From a virus (Duplodnaviria > Caudoviricetes): a DNA stretch of 29,417 bases. Made by a program: the position numbers and the translations under genes. How positions within the stretch are numbered: the stretch's first letter is position 1; the number at the start of each line of letters is the position of its first letter. The notes under the pieces are model-generated. The model did not search any database. It saw nothing but the letters and a program-made list of their open reading frames with translations, and had not been told where the DNA came from. Below, piece after piece: positions 2,203 to 24,450 of the stretch. Location of the stretch: positions 1 to 29,417 of IMG/VR virus record IMGVR_UViG_3300029319_000333, one strand, 5' to 3'.

Positions 2203-3624
2203 CTAGTTGTAATTGATGTAGCCTTTTTCAATCATAAAGTCTTCAAGCGCTGTTGGCCCCGGGTAGGCACCGTTGTTTTCGTGTAGGTAGCGACTAAAGA
2301 ACTGTTTGATTTCTTCTACCTTGTTCATGTTGCCGCCGAAGCGATAATTGCCGGGACTGCCGGACATGAAGTTACTTTCGCCAACCCATTCGTCATCAAG
2401 GCCAACAGCGTTCATCATGCGCTCAATCGCGCCAGTCATTTCCGCTGTGCTTACCTCGTAATCGTGGTTTGCATATTTGGTTCTAAAGTCTCCGCCGACG
2501 CTGTAGGTTTCAGCGTTGCCAGCAATCTCAGGCGCGCTGCCCCCGCCCGACTCTGACCGCGCACGGTCCACAACGTCAACAGCCTCGCTAAACTTGCCCT
2601 CGTCCATTAGCTCTCGATACTCTTCTGGTAGATCGATGCCCATGCGTACGGCCTCAAGCTCAATTTGATTTGCCTGCTCTTGTGCCGACATCTCTCGACC
2701 AAACTTTCTATTGATGTCGCGCTCTTTTAGCTCAAGCTGACGATCCAGCCACGACAGCTGCATGTTCCTGGTTCTTTCGCGTGCAGTAATTTGAGCCTCT
2801 GCTCTTTCGCGGGCTCCAAGGGTGGCGGTTGTAGCAATGCCGCCCATTAAGCCGCCGCCAACAGCCCCACCCATTGCCGCGTTAATTTCAGCCTGCCGCC
2901 TCTGAGCCCGAGCAATGTCTGCATCAATGCCCTGAAGAGCCGCTTCCTCATCAGCCTTAGCCTCTGCAATCAGCGCCTCATACTGGGCGCGCTCATCGGC
3001 ATACGGGTCTCCGCCCGCTGCCGCACCCTGTTCTCCCATGCCACCAGCGCCACCAAGCTGCGGACCCTCTCCTGGAAGCTTCGGCACCCCTGGAGGCTGT
3101 CCTCCCGGCAATGGGCCAGGAGCAGGCATCTGCAATGGTGGCGGAACTTGCTGCATCCCACCAGCCAGGCCAGGGCCGGGCTGACCGGGCATGACCTGCG
3201 TCTCGCTGCCACCAGGAAGCTGCTGTGTAAACACGGAGCTTTGGGGGCTTGGGCCGGCTGCCATTGGTGCGCCGCCAGGAGAACCTGCTGGCACCTGCAT
3301 TGGAGGCATTGCTCCCTGAGGAATCTGCTCGCCAAACCCAGCAAATCCGCTGCCACTCATTGGCCGAAAGCCACCTCCGACCTCAGACGGCAGCTGCATT
3401 TGTTGCTGCATTGGCGCCTCTTGCTGCGGTGGTGGCGATGGCGCGCGTGGTCTTTGCCTTTGCTGGCTTCCTGATGGAAACCCCGCTACCTGCATAGAGG
3501 GCACACCGGGAAGCTCTGGGCTCATTCCCTGCCCTGAGCCTTCTCTTGACTGGCGAGCCCTTTCGTCAATGCGACGAAGGTTTTGCTGGCGTGCGCCATT
3601 CTGCCGGTTGTTCATTTGTCGCAT
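2203..3624 (-). CDS. Putative ejection protein; P/Q/G-rich disordered N-half, glycine zipper and coiled coil
   Basis: 473 aa; AMGGAVGGGLMGGIA segment; operon position. Confidence 0.65.
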   Translation of the reverse strand: MRQMNNRQNGARQQNLRRIDERARQSREGSGQGMSPELPGVPSMQVAGFPSGSQQRQRPRAPSPPPQQEAPMQQQMQLPSEVGGGFRPMSGSGFAGFGEQIPQGAMPPMQVPAGSPGGAPMAAGPSPQSSVFTQQLPGGSETQVMPGQPGPGLAGGMQQVPPPLQMPAPGPLPGGQPPGVPKLPGEGPQLGGAGGMGEQGAAAGGDPYADERAQYEALIAEAKADEEAALQGIDADIARAQRRQAEINAAMGGAVGGGLMGGIATTATLGARERAEAQITARERTRNMQLSWLDRQLELKERDINRKFGREMSAQEQANQIELEAVRMGIDLPEEYRELMDEGKFSEAVDVVDRARSESGGGSAPEIAGNAETYSVGGDFRTKYANHDYEVSTAEMTGAIERMMNAVGLDDEWVGESNFMSGSPGNYRFGGNMNKVEEIKQFFSRYLHENNGAYPGPTALEDFMIEKGYINYN

Positions 3625-3633
3625 GTTTTACCC

Positions 3634-4212
3634 CTAAGCCTGCAAGTCTCGTTCAAGAAGCAAAGTTACCCCAACAAACCCAGCGGCGTTAAGCACGCCC
3701 GTGCCCGTAGTCGCCCCTTGCCGTAAAACCAACACTCGGTTCTGGCTGCTGTGGTAAGCAACAGCCGTTGCATCAAGCGTTGCCTGGCCAGAGTTGCCGC
3801 TCCCGTCTGCGCTAACAGTCAGAGACTCTTCGTCGATTAAAACCGTAACGTCAGTTAGAGTTCCTGAATTATAATACGCCAGTGCTACGTCAATTGTTCC
3901 AGCGGCAGAGCCCGTGTCCGAGATGAACCATGCAGCTGTTTTTAGCGTCCAGTCGTTTTGCGTAGATGACAGACCAGGGAGAGGAGCTATGGCAATGACG
4001 GAGCCGGCGCTACCCCAGGTGTAAGCGGTGTTGTCGAGCACGATAGTCACGTACTCCTTGGACGCCGCAAGCTTGCTAATTGCAATGCCTGCTGAGGCCT
4101 TGATGTCGGTATTGTCGATTGCACCAAACTTGTTAGCAATGGACGTAAAGTTGCCCTCAAGCTCTGACTTTGTGATCGTGCTTGAAAGCGATGTCGTTAA
4201 GGTCAAAGACAT
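3634..4212 (-). CDS. Virion structural protein (tail appendage-like, beta-rich)
   Basis: 192 aa, S/T/A/G-rich; IKASAGIAISKLA resembles fibre N-terminal segments; AGGAG RBS. Confidence 0.6.
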   Translation of the reverse strand: MSLTLTTSLSSTITKSELEGNFTSIANKFGAIDNTDIKASAGIAISKLAASKEYVTIVLDNTAYTWGSAGSVIAIAPLPGLSSTQNDWTLKTAAWFISDTGSAAGTIDVALAYYNSGTLTDVTVLIDEESLTVSADGSGNSGQATLDATAVAYHSSQNRVLVLRQGATTGTGVLNAAGFVGVTLLLERDLQA

Positions 4213-4221
4213 GGGTTTCTC

Positions 4222-4875
4222 CTATGAAATTTCTGCGCCGAGCTTTGACAGGTAAATTACCCACGGCACATTAACCTCGTACTCTTTGCTAAACTGGCTC
4301 AAGGGTATTTTAGCAGGCATTGGGCTTAGTGCGCTAGTGAAGGCGGCTGCGTCATAGAAGGCCGGGATAAGCCTGTTCGCAGAGTTTTCTACGCACGCAA
4401 CGCCGACCTGATGGCCCACGTTAATGCCCAAGTAGTACACGCTGCCAACCCTTAGGGTCGCTGGGTTTTCTAGGGTTTTCTCAATAACACCTGTTGCCCC
4501 AGCAGTTACCCGCACCTCTGTACCCGACACAACCCTAAAGGCCCGCTGCCCGTGCTCTCTGTCGTATCGGTATATCGCAAACCGGATTAACCTCGTTGCC
4601 CCTGGCGCAGAGGTAATTCTAACCCTGGCTTTCGCTACCTCAACGCCGCGCACTAGCTGCGGAAAAGTAAACAGGTACAAGCCAAACTTGTTAAACGTTG
4701 ATGCTGAGCCATCGGATGTTAGGGCAGTAACGTCTGCGCCGTATGGGTCAACGGTCGATACGTACCATCCATCGTTGACAGGTATTTCGCGCACCCGCGC
4801 ATTGCGGCTTTCAATCTGATTGACGTAGGCATCCGGGCCTCGGCGCTCGCCCCTGCCGTGTGGGATCTGCACCAT
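4222..4875 (-). CDS. Hypothetical virion protein (beta-sandwich-like)
   Basis: 217-aa ORF immediately after the nozzle gene. Confidence 0.65.
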   Translation of the reverse strand: MVQIPHGRGERRGPDAYVNQIESRNARVREIPVNDGWYVSTVDPYGADVTALTSDGSASTFNKFGLYLFTFPQLVRGVEVAKARVRITSAPGATRLIRFAIYRYDREHGQRAFRVVSGTEVRVTAGATGVIEKTLENPATLRVGSVYYLGINVGHQVGVACVENSANRLIPAFYDAAAFTSALSPMPAKIPLSQFSKEYEVNVPWVIYLSKLGAEIS

Positions 4876-20377: not shown

Positions 20378-20457
20378 CAGTCTCTCTCCTCGTTCTGCCG
20401 CTGCAACTCCTTGAGGAATGCAAGCACGGGATCATAGATTTTCTTCGCCAGCGCCAC
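20377..20457 (-). CDS. 26-aa micro-ORF (MALAKKIYDPVLAFLKELQRQNEERD)
   Basis: GTG 1 nt after the upstream TGA; its TGA overlaps the next ATG; fills the gap exactly; no clear RBS. Confidence 0.4.
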   Translation of the reverse strand: MALAKKIYDPVLAFLKELQRQNEERD

Positions 20458-20458
20458 T

Positions 20459-20845
20459 TCACTTGGCTCGCTGTCGCTTTCCTTTTCCGAACTCCAGGAT
20501 GTTTTCAAGTGTCTCCCCCTCCACCTTCGGCACCATATCATCAGCACGCTGCTTGTTCGACAACAAACCGCAGATGCGGGCCTCAAGCTCTACATACCTG
20601 AGTAACTCCTTTACCGGCTCGATGGAACCAACCCGCACCCCCTCCAGATACGCCTTCACACCCTCCGCCCGGTCAGCATCAGACCGATTGGGCATCGCCC
20701 GCACATCCACCACCCGCCAACCACGCTGCTCACGCAGCCACTGGACCACCACATCCGGAAGAACCTCAGCAATATACAGCGACTTAGGGCGCTCGTCCTC
20801 CGGCGCCACGGGCCAACTGCGCCATTTGTCCAGTCCATCGCTCAT
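20459..20845 (-). CDS. First late gene, candidate terminase small subunit
   Basis: 128 aa, helical C-half, AGGGG RBS; identity inferred from position only. Confidence 0.45.
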   Translation of the reverse strand: MSDGLDKWRSWPVAPEDERPKSLYIAEVLPDVVVQWLREQRGWRVVDVRAMPNRSDADRAEGVKAYLEGVRVGSIEPVKELLRYVELEARICGLLSNKQRADDMVPKVEGETLENILEFGKGKRQRAK

Positions 20846-20865
20846 CTCAACCCCTAAAGGACCCA

Positions 20866-20898
20866 GTCACGCGTGACATCTGCGTTATTCACGCGTGA
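20866..20898. promoter_or_regulatory. Tandem palindromic operators TCACGCGTGA
   Basis: GTCACGCGTGAC (20866-20877) and TCACGCGTGA (20889-20898), centres 22 bp apart. Confidence 0.65.
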
Positions 20899-20987
20899 CT
20901 AGGCCAAAAAACCGGCAAAACACAGAACTCTGTCAAGCATAATCGACTATACACCCCTGAGCAATAACAGGGACTTAGAAAAAAGAT

Positions 20988-21017
20988 TTGACTCGGGTAC
21001 AAAATACCCCGTACTCT
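20988..21017 (+). promoter_or_regulatory. Possible sigma70 promoter
   Basis: TTGACT-N18-TACTCT preceded by an A-tract; palindromic spacer CGGGTA...TACCCCG. Confidence 0.35.
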
Positions 21018-21207
21018 TCGCGTATCCCCCCTCAGAGTACAAAGCGGCCCCAGATGGTACCAAGGGTCACCCCTCTAAGATAAACACGTCAGGCTCTGCT
21101 CTGCTACGCTCCACGGTGTCTAACAGGGTGTACCTAGTTTCAAACGATTTCGTGTGCAAAGGGGTGTTGTTTGCCTAGATGGTACCGTGTACGCCCTGCA
21201 CCCACAG

Positions 21208-21520
21208 GTACCTTACACCGCGCGCGCCCGCGTGCGCTCGCGTACACGCGCGCGTGTTAGTATCCCGCGCGTACACGCGTGCGGTATGTAGTACACTGGG
21301 GGGGGGAGTTCCGGCAATCGTGGAAAGCGCGGCTTTGGAATTCCCCAACGATTCCCCCGGTTTACCATCGGCACCACCCGTACCCCCGAAACAAGCTCAG
21401 CGTACACGCGCACTTGCGCGCACGTCGCACGCACGCCCGCGCGCACACACGCGTCACGCACGCACACGCACCGCGCGTCCGTGCGCATGCCCGCGTCACG
21501 CGCCCGCACACGCGTTGCCA
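21208..21520. repeat. Alternating purine-pyrimidine (CG/CA) low-complexity tracts
   Basis: No purine-purine step on + over 21400-21520 or 21208-21259; GCGTACACGCG occurs three times. Confidence 0.85.
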
Positions 21521-21531
21521 ACCCCGTGCCA
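21516..21531 (-). promoter_or_regulatory. Possible leftward sigma54 promoter
   Basis: TGGCACGGGGTTGGCA = GG-N10-GC with perfect TGGCAC. Confidence 0.4.
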
Positions 21532-21569
21532 TGTGACCAGCCGGTCAGAAACACAAGCCGTGCCAACTG

Positions 21570-21619
21570 GTGCGAATTGCATTACGCACTTTGGGCATAG
21601 TGCGCACTGGTTTACGCAC
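21570..21619. promoter_or_regulatory. Two palindromic enhancer-like sites GTGCG-N10-CGCAC
   Basis: 21570-21589 and 21600-21619, 30 bp apart, both containing TTACGCAC followed by TTT. Confidence 0.6.
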
Positions 21620-21691
21620 TTTTCTGGGTATTCTGTTTCGCACTGAACATATTCCCAGTGCAATTTCATTGGGTTTTTTCGCTGGTCAGTT

Positions 21692-21708
21692 TTGGCATCG
21701 GCCCTGCA
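21692..21708 (+). promoter_or_regulatory. sigma54 (-24/-12) promoter for the early arm
   Basis: TTGGCATCGGCCCTGCA: GG(21694-5)-N10-GC(21706-7). Confidence 0.6.
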
Positions 21709-21719
21709 TAGTCTCCAGT

Positions 21720-22246
21720 GTACCGCGACTCCGGGAATGACCGGATGATGCCTAACTACTCACCCAACTCCCCTGCGGGGGGTTTAACGGGCTGGTTGTC
21801 TCAGGGAACGTGATTTCGCGTACTGGGGCACAGAGGATACGGCAAGGGGGCCCTATAAGTCCCCCCGCGTACATAGGTACGACGGAAACGCGATTTTTCA
21901 ACGTACTGGTTCTAGCTATATGGCCCCCTTGTTCGGGGTCCCCGCGTCCACATGCGCTTGGCCCCTGTTGGGTCTATGGTGGACGATTCACGGGTTCACG
22001 TGTGGACGGATTTGGTTTTCCCGTCCTTGATAGCTAGAACCCATGCGTGCGTCTCTTTGCGCACCGTGTCAAGCTCGAAGGTTGACCTCTTGTGGCATGA
22101 ATACCCACACGGGCGATGAAAACGAGACAGAAGGTATGTTAGAAGCTAACCGGGGGATATCTCCTCCTGACACGGCTGCGGTGACACTTAGGGACAGCGC
22201 ATGCAATCCAACCCAGGCCCCTGGGTTGGCTCATAGATTGTGTGAC
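21720..22246 (+). ncRNA. Candidate large structured RNA/leader of unknown family
   Basis: Many helices with G-U pairs, e.g. 21842-52/21922-32, 21908-19/22030-41 (12 bp perfect, crossing), 21945-51/21979-85, 22004-09/22021-26, 22064-71/22168-75, 22208-16/22221-29; no credible ORF. Confidence 0.55.
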
Positions 22247-22262
22247 AGAACAGGAACGCGAC

Positions 22263-22487
22263 ATGGGCTATATGCACAAGCGACCTGTGTCTTCATGGCA
22301 CGGTCATACCGCACAGGCCAGGCTTCTTCGGAAGTCTAAGCTAGTCCCTATCTCACTCTTACACCGCCGCAGTCGGGTGACCAAGGTCTACCCGACTACT
22401 GTACAACTCAAGAATGGCGAAGTCTGGAAAGTCACAAAACAGACCAACGCCGAAGGTCATCCTTTGATGAAGAAAGTCACCAAGTAA
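22263..22487 (+). CDS. Small highly basic protein (74 aa), possibly nucleic-acid-binding
   Basis: AGGA RBS before ATG 22263; 16 K/R versus 2 acidic residues. Confidence 0.65.
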   Translation: MGYMHKRPVSSWHGHTAQARLLRKSKLVPISLLHRRSRVTKVYPTTVQLKNGEVWKVTKQTNAEGHPLMKKVTK

Positions 22488-22639
22488 CATATACCGTCGC
22501 ACAATCTGTGAGCTGCCCCAGGGGTTATACTGGGCTGGCTTGACGATTCCCATATATCCCGCGCTGCCTAGGATGCCATAGCGGCACAAACACTTATGCA
22601 TTGCGTGAACGGGTCCCTGTGGGGTCGTCTCTAAGCCTG

Positions 22640-22736
22640 CCTAGTACTGGGTTGGCTACTCAGTATGGTGGGCATAGCCAGTCTTTTAGGCTAAACACAG
22701 TCAGCCCGCCATACTGAGCAGCCAATCCAGGCTGGG
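22640..22736 (+). promoter_or_regulatory. Long RNA hairpin (27-33 bp), RNase III-site-like
   Basis: 22647-22673 pairs with 22704-22730 (2 G-U, 1 A-C); inner TAGCC/GGCTA hairpin. Confidence 0.7.
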
Positions 22737-22744
22737 AAGGAAAC

Positions 22745-23710
22745 GTGACAAGCATGAGCATCCAACTCATTACACCAGAAAAGCAGTGCAATAAATTCCC
22801 TGAACTCAACCGGGAGTTAATCACTATGCCGATCGCTCAGAGTGTGGACATTCTGGCCCGGCAAAGCGAGGACCCGCGAATCAGGGAAAAGTTCTTAGAG
22901 TCTGAAGTGGTCGAGAGCGACGACTTCAGCATGGTGATGTGGGCCGACACCAAAGAGGTGATCGGCGTCAACAGTGCCAAGTACAGGCTTGTCCATCATG
23001 CCGACGTTGCCAACATGGCAGTGGAGACAGTGGAGAAGCTAACGGGATACACTCCAGACTGGTCTTACCATAAGATTGGCAGCAAGGGTGAAGGCCTGGA
23101 TAGCATCGCTATCCACATGGACTGCCCTGGCTTCAAACCCATCCGGGTAAACAATAGTCAGTGGCTCGATGGAGACACCAACTACAAGCCGGAGGTGGGA
23201 GACCTGACAAATCTGAAGTTCTTTCTGCGGAATGGGCTAACTGGTGGCTCTTTGATTGAAGCGTGTGCTCGATTGATGCGCCTATGGTGTGCCAATGGAG
23301 CCCAGACGCCACATGAGATCGGCCACTACAAGCACAAGCATACCGCCGGGCTGGACATTGACCGACTGGCGCAAAGCTTTGACCAGATGACTCATAACTC
23401 TCGGAAGCTTCCGGCGGTGTTCAACCACTGGAACGCTACGAAGTTAGACGCATCTGAGATCGAGAAGCTTGCTAATAGTCTAGAGGAGGCAAAGGTGAGC
23501 AAGTATCACCTTAAAGGCTTCCGTGACGCAGTCTCACGCGGTGGTTATATGACCAAGTGGGCGGCGTTCAACAAGATCACCAATCGGGCAACTCACCACG
23601 CACCAAGCATCAAGAACCAGATTGCTTTCGATAAGATTATCTCGAAAGTGTTCTGGAGCGACGATGAGACCAAAGAACTGCTGAACAACAACCTTGTTCT
23701 AGCGGCATAA
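22745..23710 (+). CDS. DUF932/DUF945-family protein (start may be ATG 22754)
   Basis: IGVNSAKYRLVHH, LRNGLTGG...RLWCANG, HKHT, TKWAAFNKIT match the family motif pattern. Confidence 0.8.
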   Translation: MTSMSIQLITPEKQCNKFPELNRELITMPIAQSVDILARQSEDPRIREKFLESEVVESDDFSMVMWADTKEVIGVNSAKYRLVHHADVANMAVETVEKLTGYTPDWSYHKIGSKGEGLDSIAIHMDCPGFKPIRVNNSQWLDGDTNYKPEVGDLTNLKFFLRNGLTGGSLIEACARLMRLWCANGAQTPHEIGHYKHKHTAGLDIDRLAQSFDQMTHNSRKLPAVFNHWNATKLDASEIEKLANSLEEAKVSKYHLKGFRDAVSRGGYMTKWAAFNKITNRATHHAPSIKNQIAFDKIISKVFWSDDETKELLNNNLVLAA

Positions 23711-23715
23711 TGTGA

Positions 23716-23737
23716 GCGGCCCCCGCAGGGGGGCCGC
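23716..23737 (+). other. Strong GC hairpin after DUF932 (no U-tract)
   Basis: GCGGCCCCC-GCAG-GGGGGCCGC. Confidence 0.7.
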
Positions 23738-23759
23738 AGCACGTTTCCAACCAGCCAAA

Positions 23760-24070
23760 ACAAATCGCATAGTGAACCGTAGGCCCATAACGGGCTGAGT
23801 GACGTGGGTGAATTCTGCCATCGCAATACAGGTGGCCACTGTGCCTGCTGCAACGGGCCAAGTTAGCCGCGACGTTGACGGATTGCAGTCCGAAGGCGGG
23901 GAGCCCAGGTGAAACAGGCTGAAGCCTGGGGTCCTGCTGTGCATAATCGAAGACTTACCTCCTGGCAGCTTAACTGCTGCACGAGGTAATTGGGCAAAGC
24001 CCACAGGGATATCTGGTCAGCATATCCCCGCTGAATGGCGATCCGGGGCCTAGGACCCGAGCTGGCCACA
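23760..24070 (+). ncRNA. Second candidate structured RNA (multibranch)
   Basis: Closing helix GTGGCCA/TGGCCAC (23832-38/24063-69) encloses hairpins 23879-92, 23896-937, 23955-89, 23991-24003, 24006-28. Confidence 0.5.
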
Positions 24071-24099
24071 ATCGACTCTCAAAACAGGAGGAGCCAGTT

Positions 24100-24450
24100 A
24101 TGACTGATGAAGATGTGCATGTGCTTAACCTGCTACGCCACCGCGTTATGCAGTGCTCAAAAGGCATAAAAGAATTCGAAGGCTTGGACGGAGGACCATA
24201 CGACAGTCACATAGCAATCACTCTTAGTCAAAGGGAGTTTCTTGTGGAGAAAAGAAGCAGAGCACTGTACGCGATGCTTCTGATGAATACATGCGACGGG
24301 GTCGATGGGGCTATACGGCATTTGCGTGAAAAGATAAGCGCCGACGCTGACGACATGCACTTAAAGCATACGCTTGACGATCTACTGCGCTCCAAGCAGG
24401 CAGTGTTTATACACAAGGCATTCCAAGCAAAGGAGCCCGGTGATGACTGA
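24100..24450 (+). CDS. Hypothetical early protein
   Basis: 116 aa; AGGAGG RBS. Confidence 0.75.
   Translation: MTDEDVHVLNLLRHRVMQCSKGIKEFEGLDGGPYDSHIAITLSQREFLVEKRSRALYAMLLMNTCDGVDGAIRHLREKISADADDMHLKHTLDDLLRSKQAVFIHKAFQAKEPGDD

Follow-up and report, generated by a model that had tools for sequence, protein, structure and literature searches.

The window analyzed here is the full 29,417-nt stretch of IMG/VR record IMGVR_UViG_3300029319_000333, which forms part of a tailed phage genome. The source of the element described below is an uncultured marine phage, and the public runs with the best matches to the window are marine metagenomes; the 17 runs listed include no RNA run, which has no bearing on whether the element is transcribed. 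Genes for an SU10-type capsid, portal, and adaptor lie on the − strand together with the terminase, and the + strand carries small early genes, including one encoding a DUF932 protein. The region under study, 21720–22246, falls in the gap separating the − strand late block from the + strand early block. We retrieved related loci via the terminase and an adjacent 128-aa gene, which we refer to as the anchor gene; a close relative, G001, is 41.2 kb long and 92% complete. DNA contigs from independent runs span most of the region, its optional insert included, which argues against an assembly artifact.

A sigma54-type site lies directly upstream of the region and is conserved in place, in agreement with the preliminary description, which had positioned the region behind a sigma54 promoter. 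The site is one of two perfect matches to the sigma54 consensus, TGGCAY-N5-YTGCW, in the window, a count that is not significant alone. Such sites occur within 2 kb of the anchor gene on the same strand in 13 of 23 loci (two of the 13, L028 and L056, are near-identical), compared with 2 of 23 on the opposite strand. Five of the six carriers of the element have the promoter at the same place; L009 lacks the site. Paired palindromes are found approximately 75 to 125 bases upstream of the sigma54-type site, about as far upstream of a promoter as sigma54 activator sites are expected, and copies with one mismatch occupy a similar place in L004, L001, L006, L008, and L037. The tandem palindromes are likely upstream activator sites of the promoter. 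Repeated palindromes of the TGACA-N4/5-TGTCA type lie upstream of the sigma54-type site in L007 (6420–6480), L031 (4139–4302), L042 (2030–2100), L056 (5360–5440), and L071 (4360–4450) and are possibly an alternative activator site. Farther upstream, window positions 21216–21510 contain alternating CG/CA tracts and small palindromes, also seen in L004, L001, and L037; this stretch is possibly near a genome end or origin.

Table 1. Features of the leader region and the adjoining gene array (window coordinates)
Feature	Position	Strand	Basis or remark
Two tandem GTGCG-N10-CGCAC palindromes	21570–21619	+	likely activator sites
sigma54-type −24/−12 promoter	21693–21708	+	predicted start near 21720
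Module A, optional structured insert with the 5′ arm (21842–21857) of the crossing helix	21724–21876	+	contigs, L004
GGAAACGCGA start-associated motif	21884–21893	+	no ATG following here
Domain 1, predicted multibranch fold	21908–22041	+	covariation, alignments
P1	21908–21919/22030–22041	+	domain 1
P2	21922–21927/21935–21940	+	domain 1
P3	21945–21951/21979–21985	+	domain 1
P4	21960–21964/21970–21974	+	domain 1
P5	21989–21992/21999–22002	+	domain 1
P6	22004–22009/22021–22026	+	domain 1
Domain 2	22042–22203	+	covariation; exchanged between alleles at closing stem
P7	22042–22056/22190–22203	+	domain 2
P8	22064–22071/22168–22175	+	domain 2
P9	22074–22077/22123–22126	+	domain 2
P12	22152–22157/22162–22167	+	domain 2
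Hairpin P13	22208–22229	+	shares its 3′ strand with the start of the first-gene stem
Cassette 1, 74-aa gene (22263–22487) in a 25-bp stem	22221–22529	+	arms ~22221–22246 and 22496–22521
Cassette 2, stem-closed, noncoding	22530–22646	+	longest ORF 12 codons
Cassette 3, noncoding, small hairpin enclosed by a 26-bp stem	22647–22731	+	
DUF932 gene, first early gene past the array	22745–23710	+	

The preliminary description had presented positions 21720–22246 as a single, densely helical, ORF-free RNA of about 500 nt with a preference for the + strand. All four helices that it named are present where it placed them, and the region folds better than its shuffles, with a + strand energy of −212.6 kcal/mol (z = −3.31, reached by 0 of 100 shuffles) versus z = −1.71 on the − strand (6 of 100). 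The strand preference thus holds for the 527 bases as a whole, but the bias is weak in the conserved core, where z is −3.72 on the + strand and −3.36 on the − strand in the window, and −1.94 and −2.07, respectively, in L009. Two ORFs, 21810–22037 and 22043–22339, do overlap the region, but no reading frame is shared among the homologues: all five have stops in all six frames. In the alignment, L001 and L042 have a one-base gap relative to the window. The GGAAACGCGA motif, which precedes early genes, is found at the same place in L004, L001, and L037 and is absent in L042 and L009; a leader peptide beginning at this motif was dismissed as not conserved.

Searches against known RNA families were negative. 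ARAGORN found no tRNA or tmRNA, no Rfam family matched at its gathering score, and the only matches at an E value of ≤10 were seven to miRNAs (E, 1.6 to 7.5). No match to GOLLD, ROOL, OLE, raiA, or HEARO was obtained with the 4,227 models of Rfam 15, among which each of these families is assumed to be present, and at an E value of ≤1, L009 and L042 matched neither these families nor ribozyme or intron families. Rfam likewise gave no catalytic-core match for RNase P, group I or II introns, or small self-cleaving ribozymes, a search that could miss a core split by large insertions. Likenesses to Twister, group II introns, T-box, HEARO, and RNase P, noted by eye, were dropped for want of Rfam support.

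Besides the window, five phage sequences carry the element: L004, L001, L037 (partial), L042, and L009. The conserved core comprises approximately 325 bases (21908–22232) and is 56 to 99% identical per domain. Identities to the window in domains 1 and 2, respectively, are 86 and 99.5% for L004, 71 and 77% for L001, 75 and 71% for L042, and 59 and 56% for L009. The spacer upstream of the element is 50% identical between the window and L001, compared with 71 to 77% for the domains of L001. The proposed extent of about 500 nt needs revision: the region is mosaic and combines an optional module with a conserved domain 1 and a domain 2 that can be exchanged. Its last bases, 22221–22246, form the 5′ arm of the stem that encloses the next gene rather than a separate part of the RNA.

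Domain 1 contains an invariant GCGCTT and a TGGKTT loop. When five rows were aligned by sequence only, 84.6% of cells were paired and 8 of 40 pairs had changed on both sides, whereas slid controls were only 30 to 44% paired. The covariation score was reached by 0 of 500 shuffles, a control that is inflated by the relatedness of the sequences (six distinct sequences, two of which are near-copies of others). In a fitted six-row alignment, a procedure that leans toward the structure, 19 of 39 pairs had changed on both sides. All six sequences keep P4 and P6 fully paired. The perfect 12-bp helix singled out in the preliminary description corresponds to P1 and was matched by a perfect 12-bp helix in 0 of 150 shuffles; across the six sequences it keeps 12, 11, 9, 9, 4, and 4 of its 12 pairs, the two low counts being the pairs in register in L001 and L037. 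A model of five sequences excluding L009 found L009 at an E value of 2.8e−6 in 90,475 bases (next match, 0.12), although this model scores sequence as well and L009 had already been spotted by eye. A short pseudoknot between the P6 loop and 22037–22041 is possible in the six sequences (96.7% paired); it shows no changes on both sides and is therefore unproven. An alternative involving the P5 loop fails in L009.

The second multibranch domain of the preliminary description, closed by P7 and P8, is also present. In its alignment, 91.6% of cells were paired and 9 of 48 pairs had changed on both sides, a result reached by 1 of 500 shuffles and lowered by one helix lying one column off. The domain 2 model recovered L009 only at an E value of 0.99 (0.0088 in an 801-base search). 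We consider it highly likely that the RNA structure is real and under selection. The region could instead be a passenger that does nothing for the phage as RNA, either a mobile or DNA-level element in decay or a structured spacer that is inert. Its patchy distribution, an optional insert with short GTAC end repeats, and the weak strand bias of the core are in keeping with that idea, but compensatory changes in many helices down to 56 to 59% identity, conserved loops, and a position fixed between the promoter and the first cassette make it improbable.

Contigs in five runs (X3, X7, X8, X10, and X12) match domain 1, depart from the window at 22043, and rejoin it at approximately 22187–22202. Domain 1 stays identical where these alleles change. 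When matched by eye, the allele ends (21 to 30 letters) remain complementary, for example CACGC and GCGTG in the closing helix, a sign that domain 2 is swapped as a whole at the stem that closes it. Because each end comes from a separate contig, the linkage of the two is presumed. These contigs point to replacement of domain 2, from about 22044 to about 22201, by different self-pairing alleles. A GCGC-GCGC pairing between the domains was discarded, as domain 2 alleles lack it while domain 1 is unchanged. Downstream of domain 2, hairpin P13 has a predicted probability of approximately 1 without the downstream arm and 0 with it, and L009 has an 11-bp equivalent of different sequence.

Upstream of domain 1, module A is absent from L004, present in runs X3, X4, X7, and X11, and skipped by two X10 contigs; one X3 piece has the second half of module A between other flanks. 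The module has short GTAC repeats at its ends. Positions 21720–21907 fold with z = −2.95 on the + strand and −0.79 on the − strand. No homologue of module A was found among the loci except the identical L034, and among its few variants, a pair is retained with C21863T and lost with G21825A. Module A supplies one side of the 11-bp helix (21842–21852/21922–21932) that was proposed to be crossed by P1 to form a long pseudoknot. This helix is present but of a kind that arises commonly by chance (23 of 150 shuffles with at most one G-U pair). Its extension, 21842–21857/21917–21932, has 15 of 16 pairs, a match seen in 1 of 200 shuffles, and an energy of −26.1 kcal/mol. Could the whole region nevertheless be one RNA of approximately 500 nt built on the crossing helix, possibly acting in some strains as a switch between module A and domain 1? 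The strength of the extended helix would fit, as would the possibility of its pairing ahead of synthesis of the P1 3′ strand, and a nested fold forced to contain it is only 5.3 kcal/mol worse. However, the helix was chosen after sight of the sequence, nested folding cannot score it jointly with P1, and it is incompatible with hairpin P2, a predicted feature of the homologues. A search for an upstream partner in L004, L001, L037, L042, and L009 yielded best duplexes of −2 to −11 kcal/mol, equaled by 77 to 289 of 300 shuffles, so the crossing helix is missing in all five. We therefore consider the single-RNA model very doubtful. Needing module A, excluding P2, and having no counterpart in five homologues, the crossing helix does not define the family, contrary to the original proposal; it may be a strain-specific interaction.

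The element has a narrow and uneven distribution. It is absent from 10 further relatives with a covered leader; model R1 matched only copies of L004 among 27 further loci and gave no match in L006, L020, L025, L029, L031, L044, or L056. Searches by blastn against phages and plasmids returned no match to the element, an exact 20-mer search gave 0 matches, and genome scans found nothing. Gapped patterns hit 3, 14, and 4 stretches in viral contigs, the real ones being only three known contigs; L014, L089, and 11 of the 14 stretches were rejected as chance matches. The carriers do not form one clade on a tree of the 128-aa anchor protein (p-AU = 0.0008; a rough, short tree with long branches and no starred branch), which suggests that the element was probably gained or lost more than once. 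Judged by this tree and by the covered relatives that lack it, the element is dispensable. We found no description of it in the literature. An IMG/VR survey (PMC10690425) contains, in the part available, candidates of only 30 to 151 bases, and the covered part of its supplements held no match, so a fragment of the element of that size may be cataloged in the remainder. What was described as a new large phage noncoding RNA or leader thus stands, on covariation, the negative Rfam results, and the positional conservation of the promoter, as an undescribed structured element but not as one 500-nt RNA: a real and apparently undescribed RNA family with few known members and a predicted function.

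The element heads an array of stem-enclosed gene cassettes that the preliminary description had missed. Each of 17 cassettes from five phages is closed by its own imperfect stem of 24 to 30 bp, with its own arm as the best partner, and all 17 stems are more stable on the transcribed strand, with 58 G-U pairs among 458. For the 15 cassettes tested, 0 of 200 shuffles matched each, and three noncassette control intervals failed the same test. Content and order vary: the window, L004, L001, and L042 have different cassette sets, and some units are noncoding. Cassette 1 has homologues in L004, L001, and L042, and a scan with its protein returned only two known contigs. In L056 and L071, the promoter leads straight into a gene.

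Most cassette stems start with CTGGGYTGG, which raises the question of whether the element itself is a ribozyme or guide that processes the array, with CCAACCCAG (22208–22216) recognizing the cassette starts. This 9-mer can pair with the arm starts at 22221 and 22647, the element adjoins the first arm in all five homologues that reach that far, and no integrase, ligase, or reverse transcriptase was evident in 12 nonstructural G001 proteins scanned. Shared arm ends explain the complementarity, though, the arm sequences of L009 vary from cassette to cassette, and no ribozyme or intron family in Rfam matched. A processing role for the element is accordingly quite improbable in our estimation.

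RNase III processing stems flank 16S and 23S rRNA, early T7 transcripts contain RNase III sites, and the enzyme makes staggered cuts within the stem. The cassettes resemble these systems in having long imperfect stems, of at least two helical turns on the transcribed strand, around each unit of one transcript; they differ in enclosing small phage genes and noncoding units of variable content and order, and their cutting is only predicted. The reading that we tentatively prefer, granting it somewhat less than an even chance, is that the core is the first RNA transcribed from the sigma54 promoter, is released by an RNase III-type enzyme, and acts in trans on a host factor as an accessory RNA of host takeover. 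Host sigma54 polymerase would produce a single long early transcript, and folding would turn it into consecutive units, each closed by a stem. Cleavage of the 24- to 30-bp stems by a host enzyme of the RNase III type would then yield single-gene messages with paired ends. The first cut would free a leader of approximately 350 nt (approximately 510 nt with module A), whose 3′ end would refold as P13. The 3′ strand of P13 is shared with the first arm, and P13 is predicted to form before the far arm is made, not after. In the most speculative step, domain 1 would be the constant scaffold, and the variable domain 2 would offer the surface to which a host protein or RNA binds. We favor release and action in trans on the grounds that the element is dispensable, that domain 2 is exchanged, and that some cassettes are noncoding.

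A role in cis explains the leader position equally well. The leader might stay on the transcript and, much as put or boxA-type elements do, act as an antiterminator or shield an extended untranslated 5′ region from Rho. The put RNA of HK022 is an antitermination RNA that causes terminator read-through in cis. Like put and boxA/nut (PMC5725501, accessible part), the element opens an early phage operon with structured RNA, but it is much larger, has two domains, and lies in a leader without boxA. It is the first sequence behind the promoter, and L006, L007, and L008 carry GTTCTTTGAAAACTGAA at the same place, one base off the boxA consensus GYTCTTTAANA (as given in the accessible part of PMC5725501). 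In these phages, the boxA-like sequence lies on the − strand behind the same sigma54-type site in a different leader (L006, 3188–3204; L007, 6189–6205; L008, 373–389). Against a cis-acting leader, window positions 21700–22745 contain no boxA match at up to one mismatch, and a scan of 20400–24200 found two terminator-like sites versus 3.5 expected. Moreover, domain 2 is exchanged freely, and L056 and L071 have no leader between promoter and gene. We regard a cis function as unlikely, although it is the main rival to the trans-acting model. If the element is an antiterminator, it is an RNA solution much larger than boxA or put.

An extension of the trans-acting model, bolder and in our judgment also unlikely, is that the early operon is an RNA delivery array in which every unit, whether a protein gene or a noncoding RNA, is stem-closed and cut out on its own. 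The first unit would then be a new class of modular RNA effector that joins an unchanging domain to a host-targeting domain open to exchange; alternatively, it would itself process the array as a ribozyme or guide. If the trans-acting model is true, phages send out variable RNAs alongside small proteins within minutes of the onset of infection, and enclosure of early genes in stems is a general packaging rule. The predicted promoter, the predicted release site, natural insert-free variants, and natural domain swaps make the locus a testable setting.

GOLLD and ROOL self-assemble into RNA-only multimers. They share with the element a phage-encoded, noncoding, multidomain architecture, but the element lacks an Rfam match, is shorter (approximately 325 nt, against about 660 to over 800), and belongs to an early leader that precedes stem-enclosed genes. 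They often lie near tRNA islands, whereas the 29.4-kb window, the record being a fragment, contains no tRNA genes. Both are large structured RNAs borne by phages, with functions described as unknown; in the accessible part of the same source, ROOL is reported to be nonessential in one strain and GOLLD to have a conserved and a variable region (bioRxiv 10.1101/2024.12.08.627333). The PeSL regulatory cassettes of T4-type phages, according to the accessible part of PMC2839356, are units of a sigma70-like promoter and a terminator located between genes. Like the cassettes here, they are repeated units between nonessential early genes at sites where gene content changes. They differ in that the array here has one sigma54-type promoter and arms that pair around each gene; no PeSL-type sigma70-like promoter or terminator was found in 22200–22745.

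Several further observations concern the early regions of the window and its relatives. Unrelated strong folds occur in L001 (4467–4787, + strand), L031 (3600–4115, − strand), and L020 (4720–5420, − strand), with z-scores of −5.46, −5.17, and −5.62, respectively; the L020 segment may hold a 109-aa gene. A segment of L056 (4340–4960, − strand) is a further candidate, and L020, L031, and L056 gave no convincing Rfam match. A GGARACGCGA-type motif, found in the window at 21885, 22254, 22740, 24924, 25702, 26271, and 28436, precedes many early genes, in relatives too, and hardly occurs on the late strand; the motif may serve in ribosome binding or in regulation. In L004, a different 309-aa gene (3403–4332, − strand) occupies the site of the DUF932 gene immediately behind the array; beyond it, the flank matches again, at 96% identity. 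The stretch that follows the DUF932 gene in the window (23711–24100) is ORF-poor and helical (z = −2.43, 0 of 100 shuffles), and L004 matches it at 97% identity over the first 240 bases. Finally, a 15-bp inverted repeat at 20862–20903 lies just upstream of the late-gene block, and L001 has a changed copy of it.
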